64,000 nucleotides of DNA from Candidatus Poribacteria bacterium. GTDB taxonomy: Bacteria > Poribacteria > WGA-4E > PCPOR2b. The position numbers and the translations under genes are program-made. Position 1 is the first letter of the stretch. Each line of letters opens with the position of its first letter. Shown here in pieces: positions 22,071 through 27,780 of this stretch. The notes under the pieces are model-generated. The model had not been told where the DNA came from, made no database searches, and saw only the letters and a list, made by a program, of their open reading frames with translations. The stretch spans positions 5,248,001 to 5,312,000 of the forward strand of contig OZ220744.1 in assembly GCA_965116925.1 (NCBI GenBank). Reading direction: 5' to 3'.

Positions 22071-22260
22071 ATTCCTGACCTAACATATTGTGTGATGTGT
22101 AACAGGTGCATCTTATCACATTTGTACCCGTTCATGCTACCCAAAATCCGAAACTCTAATCAGGATTCGGTGAAAAATCTAACGCGGGGACACTATGACG
22201 CCAAGACGCAAAGTTTTTTATTTTCTTCGCGCCTTTGCGTTTTCTTTAATTTGATACCAT

Positions 22261-22376
22261 TAGGAGTTACGCCCTTCAGATTGTAGTTGCCCGATTTATC
22301 GGGCGTTGGTGATAGTTGCCGGCGGCGATTCATCGCTGAACTACAAAGCTTTGAGCGTTCAACTGCGTAAGTCCTT
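22261..22376. mobile_element. MITE, AGGA(G/C)TTACGC...GCGTAAGTCCT family
   Basis: Inverted termini plus internal GTAGTTGCCCGATTTATCGGGC; related copies at 23139 and 33555. Confidence 0.65.
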
Positions 22377-22451
22377 ATTTTCTTTGCAACGCTGCGCCTT
22401 CGCACCTTTACGTTTGATTTAACCTAATCCTGAAAATCCTGATTCAGACAG

Positions 22452-22478
22452 TGAACCTTTTTTCCCCCTGCGGTGTCA
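22452..22478 (+). promoter_or_regulatory. putative ECF-type promoter upstream of the sigma gene
   Basis: TGAACC-N16-TGTCA, 19 nt before ATG 22498; fits the general ECF AAC/GTC pattern. Confidence 0.5.
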
Positions 22479-22497
22479 TTTACAGTGAAACCCTTTT

Positions 22498-23112
22498 ATG
22501 ATGGAGCAATCAGACCAAACCCTCATTCGCAAGATCGTGAAGCGCGATGCCACTGCTTTTGAAACACTTTTTGCACGGCACAGTGCGTCTGTCCGTCAAC
22601 ATATCCTTAGCATTGTGCAAGTTGAAAGTGCCGCTGAGGATTTGGTTCAGGAGGTATTTTTGCGTGTCTGGACACGCGCCGAACAGTGGAATGGTCAAGG
22701 CGAGTTCAAGGGTTGGCTTTTCCGCATCGCAACGAATCTTGCCCTCAATCATCTGCGAACCGTGCAGCGACAGCGGCAGGAGCCCCTTGAAACACCGCCG
22801 GACGAATTCGACGACGAGGATGAACGTTCGCCGGATCCGGATTGGCTGGTCGATACCTCGTCGCGTGGTCCCGAAGTGATAGTGGAACAAGCCGAGCGAT
22901 CCCAGCTGCTCTGGCAACTTATTGATGGATTGCCCCAAGAGAAACGAGAAGTGCTCCACCTCATATATCAGAAAGAGATGGCGCTTCGGGAAGTTGCCAT
23001 AGAGCTGGGTATTCCAGAAGGCACCGTGAAGTCGCGTTTACACTACTCCATAAGACATCTCGCCCGTGAATGGAAGGAAATTGCAAGCGGTTGGGAAGAA
23101 GATAAAGAATAA
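22498..23112 (+). CDS. ECF (group 4) RNA polymerase sigma factor
   Basis: Region 2 AEDLVQEVFLRVW / FKGWLFRIATNLALNHLR; region 4 EVAIELGIPEGTVKSRLH. Confidence 0.95.
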   Translation: MMEQSDQTLIRKIVKRDATAFETLFARHSASVRQHILSIVQVESAAEDLVQEVFLRVWTRAEQWNGQGEFKGWLFRIATNLALNHLRTVQRQRQEPLETPPDEFDDEDERSPDPDWLVDTSSRGPEVIVEQAERSQLLWQLIDGLPQEKREVLHLIYQKEMALREVAIELGIPEGTVKSRLHYSIRHLAREWKEIASGWEEDKE

Positions 23113-23138
23113 GCGAGTAGGGACATTCCACACTCTAC

Positions 23139-23260
23139 AGGACTTACGCACTCCAGATTGTAGTTGCCCGATTTATCGGGCGTATCGGGGCAGGGATGCC
23201 CCTCCCACACGTCCTTCAGTCGGGAGGAAGGGCTTTGACCGTTCAGCTGCGTAAGTCTTA
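23139..23260. mobile_element. MITE, AGGACTTACGC family, between sigma and mini-RNAP genes
   Basis: AGGACTTACGCA ... TGCGTAAGTCTT with the same internal palindrome as 22261. Confidence 0.65.
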
Positions 23261-23312
23261 TCTATAATTTACACAAACGGAATATGCAATACGAAGGAAA
23301 TAGGAGGATAGC

Positions 23313-26300
23313 ATGTCACACAACATCACTACATTTTGGCACAAGGAATCCTTTGAGGAATTGATGAAAGAACGGCTGCCAGAGCTTCTTGCTGACCGGG
23401 TGCCGCTCGCCGGTTATCATTTTGATTCAACCGGAGGATACACCTGCCGTGTCAGAATCGTGCTGGCATCAACTGAGGGCTATGTTGAGGTTGAATACAT
23501 GGACATTCCGCAGCCTGATGGAAACGGTATGTTCACTCTCGACGGTGAACCTTATGTTGTCGTGCCGCTCGCTTCAACCGTGGAACTGGAACAAGCGAAA
23601 ATTGAGTGTATGGGTGATCAACTGTACGACTACTTCAAGGCGCGTATCAGGGAAGCACCGCCGGATATAGAATGGGATACGTCGCTTGTCCGCTCATGGC
23701 TTCCGATTGATAGATGGGTGCGTGAATTCTTTAGTGATACATTCACCGCTCAGGAACTGTCCCATACTAACTGGCTCGACAAACATACACATCTACGTCG
23801 GGTACGGATTTCGCAGGGGAATCAGGTGTTTAGCCCCGGACACTTTGGACGGACTTGTCCATTTGAAACGCCAGAGGGACCAAATGTTGGCAAGATTCTG
23901 ACGATTGCGAGGGGTGCGGAGATTCGCGATGGAAAATTGGTCATCATGGATGAAAGTCCTGAAGCAACACTTGGTCTGTCCGCCGCACTGATCCCTTTTC
24001 TCGAACACAATGATCCGCCGCGAATACTCATGGGTGCGAACATGATGCGCCAATGGTTGTCTCCTTCTGCTCCAGAAACCGCACCGATTAGCTGTCCCAA
24101 CGGAGTGTCAAGAGTGGCTGCTTCTCCGGAACCTGCGCTTGTCCAGACAGGGTACGAGCCTGATGCTCCCGACTTTTGGTGTGGGCGTAATCTGTTGACC
24201 GCTTTTATCTCTTGGGGCGGGGATACCTTTGAGGACGGCATCGCGATTAGTGAATCGTGTGCTGCGCGTCTAAATTTTCCTTACGCTATTGAACCGGGCG
24301 ATAAAATTAGTAACCGTCACGGAACGAAAGGGGTCATTTCGCGCATCTTACCTGACGATGAGATGCCCCATCTTGCCGATGGCACACCGGTAGAACTCGT
24401 TTTCAGTTTTGGTGCTTTGCATGGACGGATGAACTTTGGTCAAATCCGAGAAGCCGTCATGGGCCGCATTGCGCGGGCGGAAGGAGAAACCGCTATTGTG
24501 CCGCCATTTCAAGCCCCCAATGCCGATCAACTCCGTGAGCGACTCCAAAAGGTAGGCCTGCCTGAAGATGGGATGGAAACCCTCACGTCTGGACCTAACG
24601 GTAAGAAACTGGATCGACCGAGTACGGTTGGTTGGGTCTATTGGGGAAAGACGGTTCACATCGCGCTGGATAAGCTCAAGGCCTCCGAACCCATCGTTCA
24701 CGAGGCACCTATATACCATCAGGGGCTTGGCGAACTTGAATACTATACACTACGCAACATTTCAGCATTTGAGACATTGCGAGAACATTTCAACACCCGT
24801 GCTTCAACGCGAGTAGATGCGGAGACACTTCCCGATCGCGTTACGGGGGGGACAGTTGAGCAGGCGGGACCACCGACGCCGATGTTTGCCAATCTCAAGG
24901 AGCGACTGTCGGCGGGGGGCATCCACGCTAACTTTGATGGTGACAAACTGACCTTCCAATTTGCGAGTCCAATTGGGAATACACTCCAGCTTGCCCAGCC
25001 GGTTCCCCATCCGTGGCTACATGCTCAAGCTATTGATGAAGTTGGTATATGTGAAGACATTTCTGAGTATCGTGCACTTGCCGATGTCAATGCTAGAGCA
25101 GAGCGAATGTTTGCAAATGATGCGCCGGAAAGCCTAACCCTCCAAACCCTCAAACAACTCCAAACACGTCTTGCAGAATATTTCGACGCACTTCTAAGTC
25201 CCGCAGATATGCGCTTTACGGCACGGACGCTTTTCAGCGGGCGCAGCGTCATCGTACCAGATGCGGAGTTACGTGCTGATCAGGTTGGCATCCCTGAGCA
25301 GATGGCGTGGGCACTTTTCGGGCTGCAGGTTGCAAGAGAGCTTGGTGATACCAAAGAGGTACAGGGAAAAAGCCAGAGGGCGACGCATCTCCTTGATGAA
25401 TTGATGGCGCGTTCATGGGTAATTGTACATCGAGCACCTGCGTTTACGCCTACCTCCTTTGTTGCATTCCATCCAGTGCGGCAGCCAGACCGTGCCATTC
25501 GTGTTCCTCCCTTTGTTTGTGAATTAATGAACGCTGATTTTGATGGCGACCAAGCGGCGATTTTTCTGCCCATCACAGCGGAGGGTCAACGGGAAGCCGG
25601 TGAGCAGCTGTCTATCGCTGGGCATCTCAAACGAGATCCGAATATATGTGCAGCCTTAGCCCCGGGACATGATGCGATATGGGGGTTGGCAAGTTTAAGT
25701 CTCACACCCGAAGGGCGTGATGAACTCTCAGAAATTGTCGGGATGGAGATTGTTATTCCTGAAGGTTTGGTCACGCGGCACTCGTTAGCGGATACGCTGA
25801 AAACACTCCTCAAACGCGAAGGGATTGATCGCACCATTGAAGTCGCTGAACGTCTGATGCAGCGTGGACTCGAAATTGTAAAGGAATCGGGAGCATCTAT
25901 GAGTCCGTTCCTCAGTAGAGGCGATGGTAGTCCGCCCGTTCCTACAGATCCCGATGATGCAGCAGCGTGGAATGCTTACGCGGAAGAACTTATGGAATGG
26001 ATTGCCGCTTACGAAAACTTTGCTGATAACAACTTGGGACCACACATCCTCGCAGTCAAAAGCCGCGCCTTTACAAGCAGACTTTATCGACTCGCGTGTG
26101 TTGTCGGGGCACGAGGGACAGTTTCAGATATTCGAGATTTCGTTTGGACAATCAGGATGGTGGCAAGCCGAGGATTTGCACAAGGGACAGTTTCAGGCAT
26201 TGGAGACGGGGATATCGTGATTCGTAACGGGTATTGCGATGGTTTAACATCTGATGAACTTTATGCGCTCTGTGTCGGATCACGGGAAGGGCTTGTTCGA

Positions 26301-26501
26301 TTCAACTCCGAACTACAACGCGTTGCATGGGAACTACGCGACAGCAGCCAATCAAAAGGATTTACTGTGCTGTCTCGTGCGATGCGAGCCAAGCAGCCCG
26401 GTATCGTTTTCGCACGCGCCGCAGCGTGCGGTGAAGTTGATCCGCTTACAGATATTGACAGCCGGCTTTTCGTCGGGCTGCCCGTCACAACGTCCGAGTG
26501 A
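23313..26501 (+). CDS. miniaturised single-chain RNA polymerase beta-beta' fusion (RpoB/RpoC-derived two-barrel polymerase)
   Basis: In order: GMFTLDG, THLRR, GRTCPFETPEGPNVG, LIPFLEHND...MGANMMRQ, FEDGIAISE, GDKISNRHGTKGVIS, GRMNFGQ, QGLGELE (RpoB), then SGRSVIV, HRAP, NADFDGDQ, GSREGL (RpoC); AGGAGG RBS. Confidence 0.93.
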   Translation: MSHNITTFWHKESFEELMKERLPELLADRVPLAGYHFDSTGGYTCRVRIVLASTEGYVEVEYMDIPQPDGNGMFTLDGEPYVVVPLASTVELEQAKIECMGDQLYDYFKARIREAPPDIEWDTSLVRSWLPIDRWVREFFSDTFTAQELSHTNWLDKHTHLRRVRISQGNQVFSPGHFGRTCPFETPEGPNVGKILTIARGAEIRDGKLVIMDESPEATLGLSAALIPFLEHNDPPRILMGANMMRQWLSPSAPETAPISCPNGVSRVAASPEPALVQTGYEPDAPDFWCGRNLLTAFISWGGDTFEDGIAISESCAARLNFPYAIEPGDKISNRHGTKGVISRILPDDEMPHLADGTPVELVFSFGALHGRMNFGQIREAVMGRIARAEGETAIVPPFQAPNADQLRERLQKVGLPEDGMETLTSGPNGKKLDRPSTVGWVYWGKTVHIALDKLKASEPIVHEAPIYHQGLGELEYYTLRNISAFETLREHFNTRASTRVDAETLPDRVTGGTVEQAGPPTPMFANLKERLSAGGIHANFDGDKLTFQFASPIGNTLQLAQPVPHPWLHAQAIDEVGICEDISEYRALADVNARAERMFANDAPESLTLQTLKQLQTRLAEYFDALLSPADMRFTARTLFSGRSVIVPDAELRADQVGIPEQMAWALFGLQVARELGDTKEVQGKSQRATHLLDELMARSWVIVHRAPAFTPTSFVAFHPVRQPDRAIRVPPFVCELMNADFDGDQAAIFLPITAEGQREAGEQLSIAGHLKRDPNICAALAPGHDAIWGLASLSLTPEGRDELSEIVGMEIVIPEGLVTRHSLADTLKTLLKREGIDRTIEVAERLMQRGLEIVKESGASMSPFLSRGDGSPPVPTDPDDAAAWNAYAEELMEWIAAYENFADNNLGPHILAVKSRAFTSRLYRLACVVGARGTVSDIRDFVWTIRMVASRGFAQGTVSGIGDGDIVIRNGYCDGLTSDELYALCVGSREGLVRFNSELQRVAWELRDSSQSKGFTVLSRAMRAKQPGIVFARAAACGEVDPLTDIDSRLFVGLPVTTSE

Positions 26502-26524
26502 CACGCACGTGAGTTAAAAATCTT

Positions 26525-26639
26525 GGCTCATGTTAAGAATTAGTGCAAAAGCATTGACTTACCTCAAAAACCGTAGGCGGGGCATCTTGCCCCGCCGTCA
26601 ACGCGTTCATCGTAATTGCACTCCGTTTTTACATGAGCC
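26525..26639. mobile_element. MITE with GGCTCATGT...ACATGAGCC termini and 8-bp TSD AAAATCTT (ISL3-like)
   Basis: AAAATCTT at 26517-26524 and 26640-26647. Confidence 0.8.
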
Positions 26640-26656
26640 AAAATCTTATGTGGGGG

Positions 26657-27780
<1,124 letters not shown>

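Follow-up and report, generated by a model that had tools for sequence, protein, structure and literature searches.

Textbooks credit bacteria with one RNA polymerase core only. The locus described here raises the question of whether a bacterial chromosome may encode a second, much smaller core together with a sigma factor of its own. The window, the whole 64,000-nucleotide stretch of Candidatus Poribacteria DNA that was analyzed, contains a gene read in the first-pass annotation as a miniature beta-beta' RNA polymerase in a single chain. No part of the locus is more informative than the ECF-type sigma factor gene directly upstream, which was absent from that annotation. The coordinates of all features are collected in Table 1. 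We interpret the locus as a two-gene chromosomal module consisting of a dedicated ECF sigma factor and a pruned single-chain beta-beta' polymerase, likeliest a minimal holoenzyme, a reading to which we give about an even chance. If true, a chromosomal, sigma-paired second core of one third the normal size would be an exception to the single-polymerase rule.

Table 1. Positions of the genes, sites and protein elements of the module in the window.
Feature	Position	Strand	Description or basis
Conserved ECF-type promoter TGAAC-N16-GTGTC	22452..22489	+	TGAAC 22452-22456, GGTGTC 22472-22477
AGTGAA-like conserved block	22484-22489	+	about 6 nt past GTGTC, near the expected transcript start
Cognate ECF-type sigma factor, 204 aa	22498..23112	+	regions 2 and 4, acidic linker, conserved Trp near the C-terminus
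Dispersed short repeat (MITE/REP-like, inverted ends)	23137..23262		strand unassigned; between the sigma and polymerase genes
Shine-Dalgarno AGGAGG	23302-23307	+	5 nt before the ATG; direct sequence reading
Mini beta-beta' polymerase gene	23313..26501	+	ATG start, 1062 aa, no internal stop
Beta-like half (residues 1-542)	23313..24938	+	structure alignment to 6j9e_C, Z 27.2
Beta'-like half (residues 543-1062)	24939..26498	+	structure alignment to 6edt_D, Z 17.4, rmsd 3.3 A, 487 aligned
Clamp coiled coil, helices 584-601 and 606-627	25062..25193	+	helices in model; aligned to own beta' 290-335
NADFDGD, Mg-binding Asp triad D742/D744/D746 (residues 740-746)	25530..25550	+	translation
Sub-clade insertion of about 23 residues, predicted disordered	26136..26204	+	pLDDT <50 at residues 942-964
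Long bridge-helix-like helix (residues 980-1012)	26250..26348	+	helix in model; start aligns to own beta' 798-814

The polymerase gene is one uninterrupted reading frame with a strong ribosome binding site, as had been claimed. Separate, normal genes are present in the same genome, with rpoB at C1:4205217-4209233 (1774.6 bits) and rpoC at 4209736-4213788 (1652.3 bits). The mini gene, at C1:5271313, lies 1 Mb away from these, in agreement with its earlier description as being outside the rpoBC context. Since the cell's own beta and beta' subunits are 1378 and 1439 aa long, the single chain amounts to 38% of their combined length, close to the 40% estimated previously. Misassembly had been named as a finding that would speak against the gene, and DNA contigs of two studies span the whole frame; all 30 of the 30 bins of positions 22400-26600 are covered by contigs from two runs, one of them possibly the source sample.

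Of 240 candidates in the genome, at least 50 match the short repeat between the two genes, and its depth in DNA run X1 is 8416, as compared to approximately 150-330 in the adjacent bins. The repeat is an insertion between the sigma and polymerase genes and does not belong to the conserved module. Most other loci have the two genes end to end or overlapping. Contig joints from 23181 to 26572 were considered as a deletion form of the locus and rejected, being due to copies of the dispersed repeat that flank the gene on both sides.

The catalytic motifs of RpoB are followed by those of RpoC in the translation, in the order and at the places that had been read by eye. FEDG is found at residues 306-309, GDKISNRHGTKG at 329-340, GRMN at 371-374 and KTVH at 446-449, followed by SGRSV at 642-646, HRAP at 706-709 and, at the nucleotide positions given earlier, NADFDGD. 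Alignment of residues 1057-1147 of an E. coli beta chain (10ma_I) to residues 323-413 identified K331, K339 and R372 as the equivalents of E. coli beta K1065, K1073 and R1106, as proposed. The corresponding beta' residues are presumably R352, R425 and D460/462/464 in E. coli numbering. A scan with Pfam models, one of the suggested checks, detected Rpb2_3 (residues 149-204, E 6.9e-09), Rpb2_6 (326-457, E 4.5e-41) and Rpb1_2 (691-764, E 2.5e-18), and the sequence matches in Pfam, NCBIfam and PDB were exclusively to beta and beta'. Bacterial models scored higher than archaeal ones, both for rpoB (184.9 vs 138.5 bits) and rpoC (82.2 vs 44.7 bits). These model scores support a bacterial-type ancestry of the chain.

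Structure prediction with AlphaFold2 yielded a model with a pLDDT of 93.8 and a pTM of 0.92. Residues 1-542 superposed on bacterial beta with a Z score of 27.2 (rmsd 2.9 A, 520 aligned), and the structure alignment switched from beta to beta' at residues 542/543, which places the junction at nucleotide 24939 where a position near 24940 had been predicted. The best 50 Foldseek matches were all second-largest subunits of RNA polymerases, nearly all of them bacterial or plastid beta, with E-values down to 5e-23. Residues 5-151 aligned to 3mlq_A (Z 10.3) and 4kbj_A (Z 9.4), and isolated double-psi beta-barrel (DPBB) chains aligned at residues 640-760 (Z approximately 6-7). Profile comparison with hhalign matched residues 89-542 to positions 493-1368 of the cell's own beta subunit (E 5e-47) and residues 562-1002 to positions 263-814 of its beta' subunit (probability 99.7%). 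With bacterial models ahead of archaeal ones and both halves superposing on bacterial beta and beta', the view of the protein as a second polymerase derived from a cellular one by in-frame domain deletions was upheld.

The beta-like half consists of a reduced beta1/protrusion (approximately residues 5-151), the fork (Rpb2_3, 149-204), a double-psi barrel (approximately 290-460) that holds FEDG, GDK...KG and GRMN, and then the C-terminal clamp part. Both double-psi barrels with their catalytic residues have been kept, in addition to the fork, the SGRS motif (switch-2), the funnel helices, the bridge-helix-like helix, the small beta1 domain and the clamp coiled coil. A pair of DPBB domains, the DxDxD motif and a bridge-type helix between them place the chain in the two-barrel RNA polymerase superfamily. 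The beta2 lobe, the flap, the first approximately 260 residues of beta', which have shrunk to about 20, and the rudder stretch have no counterpart, and the stretches of the cell's own beta that hhalign left unmatched are 646-697, approximately 740-835 and 884-1129 (flap). Only a short C-terminal segment of 50 residues follows the bridge-like helix, as compared to about 625 residues in the cell's own beta', which runs to 1439; the trigger loop, the jaw and other late beta' domains are therefore absent. Measured against canonical beta/beta', the chain retains the two barrels with the Asp triad and the basic beta-barrel residues, and it lacks the flap domain, the trigger loop and the later beta' domains. 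The insertion of about 23 residues is specific to the sub-clade of the window and absent from 19 of the 19 other rows of the family alignment.

Homologues of about 1,000 aa, which the first-pass annotation had proposed searching for, proved abundant. Of 8,000 proteins scored, 1,043 matched at E<=0.001, and 569 family representatives matched at E<=1e-30. Lengths ranged from 990 to 1106 aa and identities from 49 to 91% among the 120 matches listed. The family, which comprises hundreds of clusters, occurs in at least eight named bacterial groups and yet is annotated only as "hypothetical" in the sources seen. Purifying selection, another of the proposed checks, was evident from dN/dS values of 0.11-0.21 in 21 pairs. 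The catalytic residues are largely kept: among 188 full-length members, the Asp triad is D/D/D in 175, and K331, R335, K339 and R372 are conserved in 181, 188, 181 and 183, respectively. The triad is altered in the other 13 members, ten of which have N-D-D (some of these 88% identical to the protein in the window) and three of which are degenerate. The few broken copies in the family (three pieces in L026; two pieces with 3 TGA in G049; a shortened match with one stop in G010) would suit a pseudogene, whether decaying or chimeric, or an artefact of assembly. However, the reading frame is unbroken here and in 30 of the phylum's 32 carrier genomes, and with the low dN/dS, the high pLDDT and the DNA contigs of two studies this explanation retains hardly any probability.

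Orthologues of equal size were identified in 32 of 176 genomes of the window's phylum, and near-complete genomes of the same genus, such as G044 and G054, are without the gene; the mini polymerase gene is dispensable. In the phylum of genome G176, reached via a Chloroflexota locus (L022), the gene was found in 3 of 401 sampled genomes with two candidates scored per genome. Full-size beta and beta' were present beside the mini gene in five of five genomes of other phyla. Should the sigma factor and the mini chain by themselves be a complete transcription machine, bacteria of several phyla would have two nuclear-type RNA polymerases, against the textbook picture of a single enzyme. This patchy distribution across phyla, and a family tree in which the Poribacteria clade nests beside Chloroflexia, would also be expected of a YonO-like polymerase that belongs to a mobile element, such as a phage or plasmid, residing in the chromosome. 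Such an origin is very improbable given the rest of the data. The protein was covered to 80% in none of 37 phage and none of 68 plasmid records with matches, all of which were of the ordinary rpoB/rpoC type, and matches in viral contigs (80 loci kept) were just 21-30% identical. PHROG matches were to beta/beta'-type families only; PADLOC contained no family for the polymerase and gave a 17-bit match at chance level for the sigma factor. The locus is surrounded by metabolic genes, with neighbours that are syntenic in L007-L009, and the phylum label is clustered on the family tree (8 changes vs a shuffled mean of 15.1).

The upstream gene encodes an ECF-type sigma factor, with Pfam matches to Sigma70_r2 (E 7.4e-17), Sigma70_r4 (E 2.7e-11) and Sigma70_ECF (E 2.3e-05), and a TIGR02937 score of 114.8 bits against a cut-off of 42.9. 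It contains regions 2 and 4 only, as in the ECF class (group 4). A family-specific profile gave 139-335 bits in 33 loci vs 72 bits for another ECF sigma factor, and dN/dS was 0.09-0.23. Among the 34 family loci in total, one (L015) has no upstream DNA, and the cognate sigma gene is located upstream on the same strand in 33 of the remaining 33. No other neighbour gene is conserved across the family loci. Within the phylum, the cognate sigma factor (>300 bits) was found in 31 of 32 genomes with the polymerase, and an intact copy in none of the 144 genomes without it; one of the 144 has a 282-bit remnant interrupted by two stop codons, and the ECF paralogues that rank next do not exceed 159 bits. 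The sigma factor and the polymerase are thus conserved as a pair, and have been gained and lost together in the window's phylum. No fusion of the two was found among the 188 full-length members, the longest of which has 1106 aa.

An ECF sigma gene normally has its anti-sigma gene after it. No such gene is conserved across the loci and no anti-sigma domain was detected among the neighbours in the window; the mini polymerase, as the sole conserved neighbour, occupies the usual anti-sigma place. It could accordingly act mainly as a sigma-binding partner, a decoy core or anti-sigma factor that keeps the ECF sigma from the real core, with catalysis secondary or lost. The retained coiled coil and the 13 of 188 members with an altered triad in an otherwise conserved protein agree with such a role. 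We nevertheless consider it improbable, as all three Asp residues are present in 175 of the 188 members and the basic beta-barrel residues hardly vary, the conserved fork, SGRS, funnel and bridge-helix-like elements would be useless to a decoy, and 1,000 aa far exceeds what a sigma trap needs.

In the minimal holoenzyme that we favour, the sigma factor would bind the mini chain itself. The clamp coiled coil of bacterial beta' is the docking site of sigma region 2, and in the normal polymerase the tip of the flap holds sigma region 4. With the flap deleted and the beta' N-terminus reduced, the canonical sigma geometry cannot simply be assumed. Prediction of a complex between polymerase residues 1-796 and the sigma factor gave a weak score of 0.32, as compared to 0.00 for the best of three controls. 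Among solved complexes, 116 of 157 attain the mark applied to such scores, as compared to 2 of 215 among mismatched pairs; scores of at most 0.60 include just 18 of those 157 together with the two mismatches that attained the mark. Agreement between the runs extends to at least 25% of the contacts, and the partner pLDDT is at least 61. Since sigma-core complexes have been solved, even this score may reflect a likeness to structures known to the model.

The promoter dyad upstream of the sigma gene was present in 28 of 32 upstream regions, as compared to at most 8 in 20 shuffles. In 28 of 35 sources the core matrix identified a single site per locus; the reversed controls contained none, and no second site was located within 6 kb in the 34 loci. 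Genome-wide, the module's own site was the best match (38.7 bits), followed by a match of 25.1 bits, with a maximum of 24.8 bits in the reversed-genome control. This matrix includes positions of the transcribed leader, the core blocks alone being too poor in information for 13 Mb, so there may be weaker or differently extended sites. The next four matches, which have imperfect second blocks, were rejected; apart from the module's own promoter, no target site in this genome stood above the reversed-genome control.

This promoter has standard ECF architecture, and its ordinary spacing would be equally readable by the host core with the same sigma factor. An ordinary ECF sigma on the host core might hence switch on the operon, with the mini polymerase as a sigma-independent product such as a primer-making, gap-filling, promoter-independent or RNA-templated synthase. 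Region 2 resembles that of other ECF sigmas (92 NCBIfam sigma families matched), the anchor of region 4 is missing with the flap, and only the operon's own promoter was found, as in autoregulated ECF operons. Single-chain relatives that lack the trigger loop, for example QDE-1, use RNA templates (PMC9508822). We judge this explanation unlikely, although it carries more weight than the other alternatives: an intact sigma without the polymerase occurs in 0 of 144 genomes, with one pseudogene, the clamp coiled coil has been kept though most of the clamp periphery is pruned, and the complex score, albeit weak, exceeds the controls.

According to the two-protein holoenzyme reading, both genes would be transcribed from the single conserved ECF-type promoter that precedes the sigma gene. 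The mini chain would be an active nucleotide polymerase that may need neither alpha nor omega, because its two halves are covalently joined. Sigma region 2 would dock on the retained clamp coiled coil to form a holoenzyme of about 1270 aa, which would open the TGAAC-N16-GTGTC promoter and feed back on its own operon. Since it is without trigger loop, flap and rudder, the enzyme may be slow, poorly processive or specialised, like other two-barrel enzymes that have no trigger loop. Counting against this reading are the deleted flap, the 13 of 188 changed triads, the dispensability of the gene, the weak complex score, the promoter spacing and the fact that the module's own promoter is the sole one to stand out.

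A stronger version, that the sigma factor and the 1062-aa chain alone constitute a complete promoter-specific machine of bacterial type without alpha, omega, flap, trigger loop and the beta' N-terminal region, orthogonal to the host enzyme, falls somewhat short of an even chance in our estimate. Such a machine might also be insensitive to drugs and phage factors that act on the main polymerase, because the stretch aligned to what we take to be the rifampicin region of the host is divergent (11 of 25 residues identical, counted by hand on the alignment). The gene pair may then be the smallest promoter-specific transcription machine of bacterial type. If true, it would represent a natural deletion experiment on the roles of flap, lobe, rudder, trigger loop, alpha and omega in promoter-specific initiation, and a polymerase made by two genes, with a promoter of its own, would lend itself to use as a compact, orthogonal system for expression.

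Compared to known systems, the module resembles a canonical core with an ECF sigma in its barrels, catalytic residues, fork, SGRS, funnel, bridge-like helix and clamp coiled coil, in sigma regions 2 and 4, and in a two-block promoter with ECF-type spacing. It differs in being one chain of 1062 aa rather than two of 1378 and 1439 aa, outside the rpoBC operon, dispensable and patchily distributed, and its scores are far below the equivalog cut-offs (184.9 vs 801.15 bits for TIGR02013, 82.2 vs 963.5 for TIGR02386). Full-length beta::beta' fusions (NF011417 and NF007172), presumably those of the Helicobacter and Wolbachia type, likewise contain beta followed by beta' in one polypeptide. Unlike the mini chain, they are the cell's only polymerase and, as had been stated, full length, with models of 2839 and 2890 positions; the mini chain scored 177.4 vs a cut-off of 4632 and 154.9 vs 5372, and is not a member of this class.

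YonO lacks a trigger loop. The mini chain is similar to YonO, crAss-like phi14:2 gp66, P23-45 gp96/gp64 and QDE-1 in having two barrels and no trigger loop in one chain. These enzymes are from phages or eukaryotes and are not known to be paired with a sigma factor. Those of phages had been described as far more divergent, consistent with Z scores of 7.3-10.2 for phage and RNAi chains (YonO not among them) vs 17-27 for cellular ones; with this difference and no phage or plasmid record at 80% coverage, the mini chain falls outside the YonO-like phage class. Compact polymerases in viral contigs are likewise derived from bacterial beta/beta' and reduced in size, but are encoded by separate genes for 888-903 aa and 1000-1010 aa in L086 and L095. 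Orf6 of the yeast cytoplasmic linear plasmid pGKL2 is an Rpb2::Rpb1 fusion of 982 aa in which about half of the coding sequence has been deleted and the active-site core is still recognisable (PMC2919709). By description, both proteins are pruned fusions of the two large subunits in the same order, whereas Orf6 is of eukaryotic ancestry, plasmid-borne and without a sigma factor. The mini chain would, if the reading is true, be the bacterial counterpart of this enzyme.

A description of the family was not found in the literature search. The atypical enzymes listed in the sections consulted of PMC2919709 are those of yeast plasmids, an insect virus, phages and the YonO-like type only, and the corresponding part of PMC7281927 assigns single-chain enzymes with two barrels to phages and fungal plasmids. 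RpoB, Rpb or similar terms have no occurrence in the main text and one supplement of the ECF classification (PMC7826278), and the part consulted of bioRxiv 10.1101/2020.03.07.982082 contains nothing relevant to the family. PMC10770324 mentions "derivatives with fused DPBB domains" among 23 families, and an earlier mention is possible in the alignments of that paper or in Iyer and Aravind 2012. The conserved pair of sigma factor and mini polymerase appears to be undescribed.

Rfam and tRNA scans of the window gave no matches, and no sigma-70-type promoters or terminators at 22100-26800 exceeded the shuffles. Contigs from two RNA libraries covered 15 of 30 (X18) and 23 of 30 bins (X19) of positions 22400-26600 at 90-99% identity and a depth of 1-15, values to which carry-over of DNA may contribute. 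The T-run of a hairpin at 26576-26596 lies on the minus strand, which fits the convergent gene.

The mini polymerase is encoded by a single uninterrupted ORF that starts with ATG and runs for 1,062 codons with zero internal stops. The sequence AGGAGG lies 5 nt ahead of the start, and the GC content around the ORF (0.49–0.53) is comparable to that of the remaining window. The first-pass annotation had read this ORF as a fused beta-beta' chain with intact catalytic motifs, and all of its motifs were recovered in the translation at the positions it gave, including NADFDGD at nt 25530-25550. It had also suggested a domain search, and Pfam matched both Rpb2 and Rpb1 domains (see table). The bacterial NCBIfam models scored 184.9 bits for rpoB (cut-off 801) and 82.2 bits for rpoC (cut-off 963.5), and the archaeal models scored lower, at 138.5 and 44.7 bits, respectively. 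The best sequence matches among solved structures were bacterial for both beta (8i23_C, E 9.6e-46) and beta' (8i23_D, E 8.5e-19). Residues 323-413 aligned to 1057-1147 of an E. coli beta chain, so that K331, K339 and R372 correspond to K1065, K1073 and R1106.

Features of the sigma-polymerase module (nt, window positions; residues, mini polymerase) and structural matches of the predicted model
Feature	Position	Match or basis	Values
Promoter blocks of the module	nt 22452-22489	upstream of sigma	
AGTGAA-like block	nt 22484-22489		
ECF-type sigma factor gene	nt 22498-23112 (+)	regions 2 and 4	204 aa
Mini polymerase gene	nt 23313-26501 (+)		1062 aa
Dispersed repeat copies	nt 22260-22380, 23137-23262, about 26520-26600		
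Rpb2 domain 3	residues 149-204	Pfam	
Rpb2 domain 6	residues 326-457	Pfam	E 4.5e-41
Rpb1 domain 2	residues 691-764	Pfam	E 2.5e-18
Clamp coiled coil	helices 584-601 and 606-627	aligned with own beta' 290-335	
Sub-clade insertion	nt 26136-26204 (residues 942-964)	just ahead of bridge-helix region; predicted disordered	~23 residues
Beta-like half, model	residues 1-542	bacterial beta 6j9e_C	Z 27.2, rmsd 2.9 A, 520 aligned
Beta'-like half, model	residues 543-1062	bacterial beta' 6edt_D	Z 17.4, rmsd 3.3 A, 487 aligned
Beta1 domain, model	residues 5-151	3mlq_A and 4kbj_A	Z 10.3, 9.4
Whole model		QDE-1	Z 10.2
Whole model		P74 gp62	Z 9.4
Whole model		P23-45 gp96	Z 8.3
Whole model		crAss-like gp66	Z 7.3

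An AlphaFold2 model built with an 81-row alignment had a mean pLDDT of 93.8 and a pTM of 0.92, with 960 of 1062 residues at 90 or above. The sole poorly predicted stretch was the insertion at residues 942-964, which is found only in the sub-clade of the window, being present in relatives of 1061-1067 aa, whereas most relatives have 1039 aa. Exhaustive structural comparison was run for model ranges and for the whole model, and the predicted halves matched bacterial beta and beta', the comparison with the bacterial core that had been proposed. The best 50 chains retrieved by Foldseek were RNA polymerase second-largest subunits, nearly all of them bacterial or plastid beta. We conclude that the mini polymerase belongs to the two-barrel, bacterial-type polymerases.

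Profile alignment to the ordinary subunits of the same genome showed which parts have been lost. Residues 89-542 corresponded to 493-1368 of the genome's own beta (E 5e-47), with no counterpart for 646-697, about 740-835 and 884-1129, the last of which is the flap with its insertion. Most of the lobe region (own beta 160-420) also lacked a counterpart in the alignment. Residues 562-1002 corresponded to 263-814 of own beta' (probability 99.7%), and about 20 residues are all that is left of the first ~260 of beta'. The stretch from the second clamp helix to the SGRS motif, which holds the rudder in bacterial beta', is ~27 residues shorter than in own beta'. In the alignment, a long helix, 980-1012, begins where the bridge helix region does; it is followed by only 50 residues, as compared to about 625 in own beta', and thus there is no room for the trigger loop or later domains. 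The chain retains the two barrels and the fork, together with the SGRS and RAP motifs, the funnel helices and the clamp coiled coil.

The window genome is a single contig of 6.47 Mb, 99% complete, and carries the separate normal rpoB and rpoC genes that the first-pass annotation had wished to see confirmed. These are adjacent at 4.205–4.214 Mb, and the mini gene is at 5.271 Mb. Their products are 1378 and 1439 aa, so that the 1062-aa fused protein is 38% of the sum, in agreement with the earlier estimate of about 40%. Full-size beta and beta' were also present in five of five genomes of other phyla that carry a relative. That the mini polymerase is an artefact is scarcely credible: contigs of two DNA runs, one of them possibly the source of the assembly, spanned 30/30 bins of 22400-26600 as exact pieces. 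Low-depth pieces of both module genes were found in two RNA libraries, which does not establish transcription.

Homologues of the same size were also found. A word-indexed search, in which 8000 candidates were scored, gave 1043 proteins at E<=0.001. The 120 matches listed were 990-1106 aa long and 49-91% identical to the mini polymerase; among them, source names were "hypothetical protein" or bare Pfam domain lists, and the named organisms were Poribacteria, Hydrogenedentes and Chloroflexi. An exhaustive search of 50%-identity representatives gave 569 at E<=1e-30, with roughly a hundred full-length clusters at identities down to 38%, followed by a gap to ordinary beta and beta'. The 34 family loci obtained from species-representative genomes were assigned by record titles to Poribacteria, Chloroflexota (several classes), Phycisphaerae, Brocadiaceae, Armatimonadota, Kiritimatiellae, Latescibacterota and Myxococcales.

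Within the phylum of the window, 32 of 176 genomes carry the mini polymerase. The share is 21 of 28 in the window's own family, 9 of the 11 genomes of a second family and 0 of the 112 genomes of a third. Near-complete genomes of the window's genus without it exist. In a quick tree of 30 copies, the Poribacteria grouped as a single clade with support 96, next to two copies from Chloroflexia, and the phylum labels required 8 changes, as compared to a shuffled mean of 15.1; inheritance is thus mostly vertical, with some transfer. Decaying polymerase genes were seen in two pieces with 3 TGA codons (genome G049, C2:821095-824204) and in three frames (locus L026).

The ratio dN/dS, another of the proposed checks, was 0.11-0.21 among seven Poribacteria copies (21 pairs) and marks the family as one under purifying selection. 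Among 188 full-length members, R335 was kept in all, K331 and K339 in 181 each, R372 in 183 and the Asp triad of NADFDGD (D742, D744, D746) in 175. Ten members, all Poribacteria-like (P0014, P0015, P0032-P0038, P0040), have an N-D-D triad, two of these being 88% identical to the window protein, and three distant members (P0159, P0165, P0189) have a degenerate motif. The altered-triad proteins are conserved outside the triad.

A polymerase borne by a mobile element is very improbable. At 80% coverage of the protein, 0 of 37 matching phage records and 0 of 68 matching plasmid records were retained, and PADLOC gave no match. The window neighbours are metabolic and transport genes, and the flanking regions keep their synteny in the closest genomes. 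So far as these data show, the mini polymerase is not a phage or plasmid gene. Viral-contig matches (80 loci retained) were 21-30% identical to the window protein; in the two inspected (L086 4308-10164, L095 4311-10210), a beta-like gene of 888-903 aa and a beta'-like gene of 1000-1010 aa lie side by side as separate genes. Each of these proteins is smaller than the bacterial subunits.

The first-pass annotation knew of no described family like this one, which is in line with our full-text literature search: in the texts covered, a chromosomal, sigma-paired and pruned beta-beta' chain was not found described. The nearest analogue in these texts is the 982-aa Rpb2::Rpb1 fusion carried by yeast linear plasmids (PMC2919709).

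Upstream of the polymerase lies an ECF-type sigma factor gene, which the first-pass annotation did not include. A profile built from the genes upstream of the polymerase matched at 139-335 bits, on the same strand and just upstream, in 33 of 34 loci; in the remaining locus, L015, no more than 52 bases of DNA lie upstream. The sigma gene is split over two frames in L010, and L028 is cut by a contig end. All-vs-all comparison of the ORFs within 6 kb identified sigma and polymerase as the only conserved neighbours, and every other cluster consisted of shadow frames of the two. In many loci, the polymerase start abuts or overlaps the sigma stop; the 200-nt gap in the window is due to insertion of a dispersed repeat. 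In one Poribacteria lineage (L024 3233-5638; G025), an 801-aa prolyl-oligopeptidase-family gene is inserted between the two, and the promoter stays with sigma.

The cognate sigma (>300 bits) was present in 31 of the 32 polymerase-carrying genomes of the phylum, the exception being a genome of 79% completeness in which the polymerase match is truncated. The profile search found no intact cognate sigma in the 144 polymerase-less genomes, in which the best matches were one 282-bit remnant with two stop codons and then ECF paralogues at 159 bits or less. Thus, sigma and polymerase have been kept and lost together. The remnant (G056:C1:5436388-5436942) is in a genome without a polymerase match. The next-best profile match in the window genome is a paralogous ECF sigma (C1:266270-266833; 149 bits vs 324), and paralogues like it are found in most of the phylum's genomes, with or without the module.

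A blind dyad search found TGAAC followed by GTGT/TGTC in 28 of 32 sigma upstream regions, whereas 20 shuffled sets gave no more than 8. When aligned, the instances read TGAAC-N16-GTGTC, with the second block mostly as cGGTGTC, and lie ~40-60 nt ahead of the likely start codon. An AGTGAA/AGTAGA-like block follows ~6 nt past the second block, close to where the transcript is expected to start; it occupies the same place in 27 loci and, like the promoter, is conserved across phyla. The matrix built from the two core blocks gave a single site per locus in 28 of 35 sources, as compared to 0 in reversed controls. In the whole-genome scan, the site before sigma scored 38.7 bits, the next 25.1 and the reversed-genome control 24.8. 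These results indicate that the module has a conserved ECF-type promoter of its own; no second target was found in the genome scan.

Beyond the anatomy, the conservation, the coupling to sigma and the promoter, which the data show, we see an even chance that the mini polymerase and sigma form a minimal sigma-dependent holoenzyme. The chain would be an active polymerase that could dispense with alpha and omega since its two halves are joined, sigma would dock on the retained clamp coiled coil, and the pair would read the private promoter. Complex prediction for polymerase residues 1-796 with sigma scored 0.32, as compared to 0.00 for the best of three controls, with at least 25% contact agreement between runs and a partner pLDDT of at least 61. 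Of 157 solved complexes, 116 attained this mark, as did 2 of 215 mismatches, and scores of 0.60 or less occurred in only 18 of the solved complexes and in both passing mismatches. The prediction weakly favours binding of sigma to the mini polymerase, and the pass may reflect likeness only, because sigma-core complexes have already been solved.

Several results speak against a simple holoenzyme. The flap, which anchors sigma region 4 in the normal enzyme, is gone, and the genome scan revealed no output beyond the module's own promoter. The host core with the same sigma could read that promoter, and it is possible, if somewhat doubtful, that sigma acts in this way and that the mini enzyme works without it. 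The triad is changed in 7% of members, which also counts against the holoenzyme; a protein that serves as a sigma-binding decoy is unlikely, and the triad is intact in the large majority of members.

The repeat that flanks the sigma and polymerase genes is short and dispersed, with inverted ends (MITE/REP-like); of 240 candidates in the genome, at least 50 matched it. In sponge-metagenome runs, the repeat bins were at 30-50x the depth of their neighbours.
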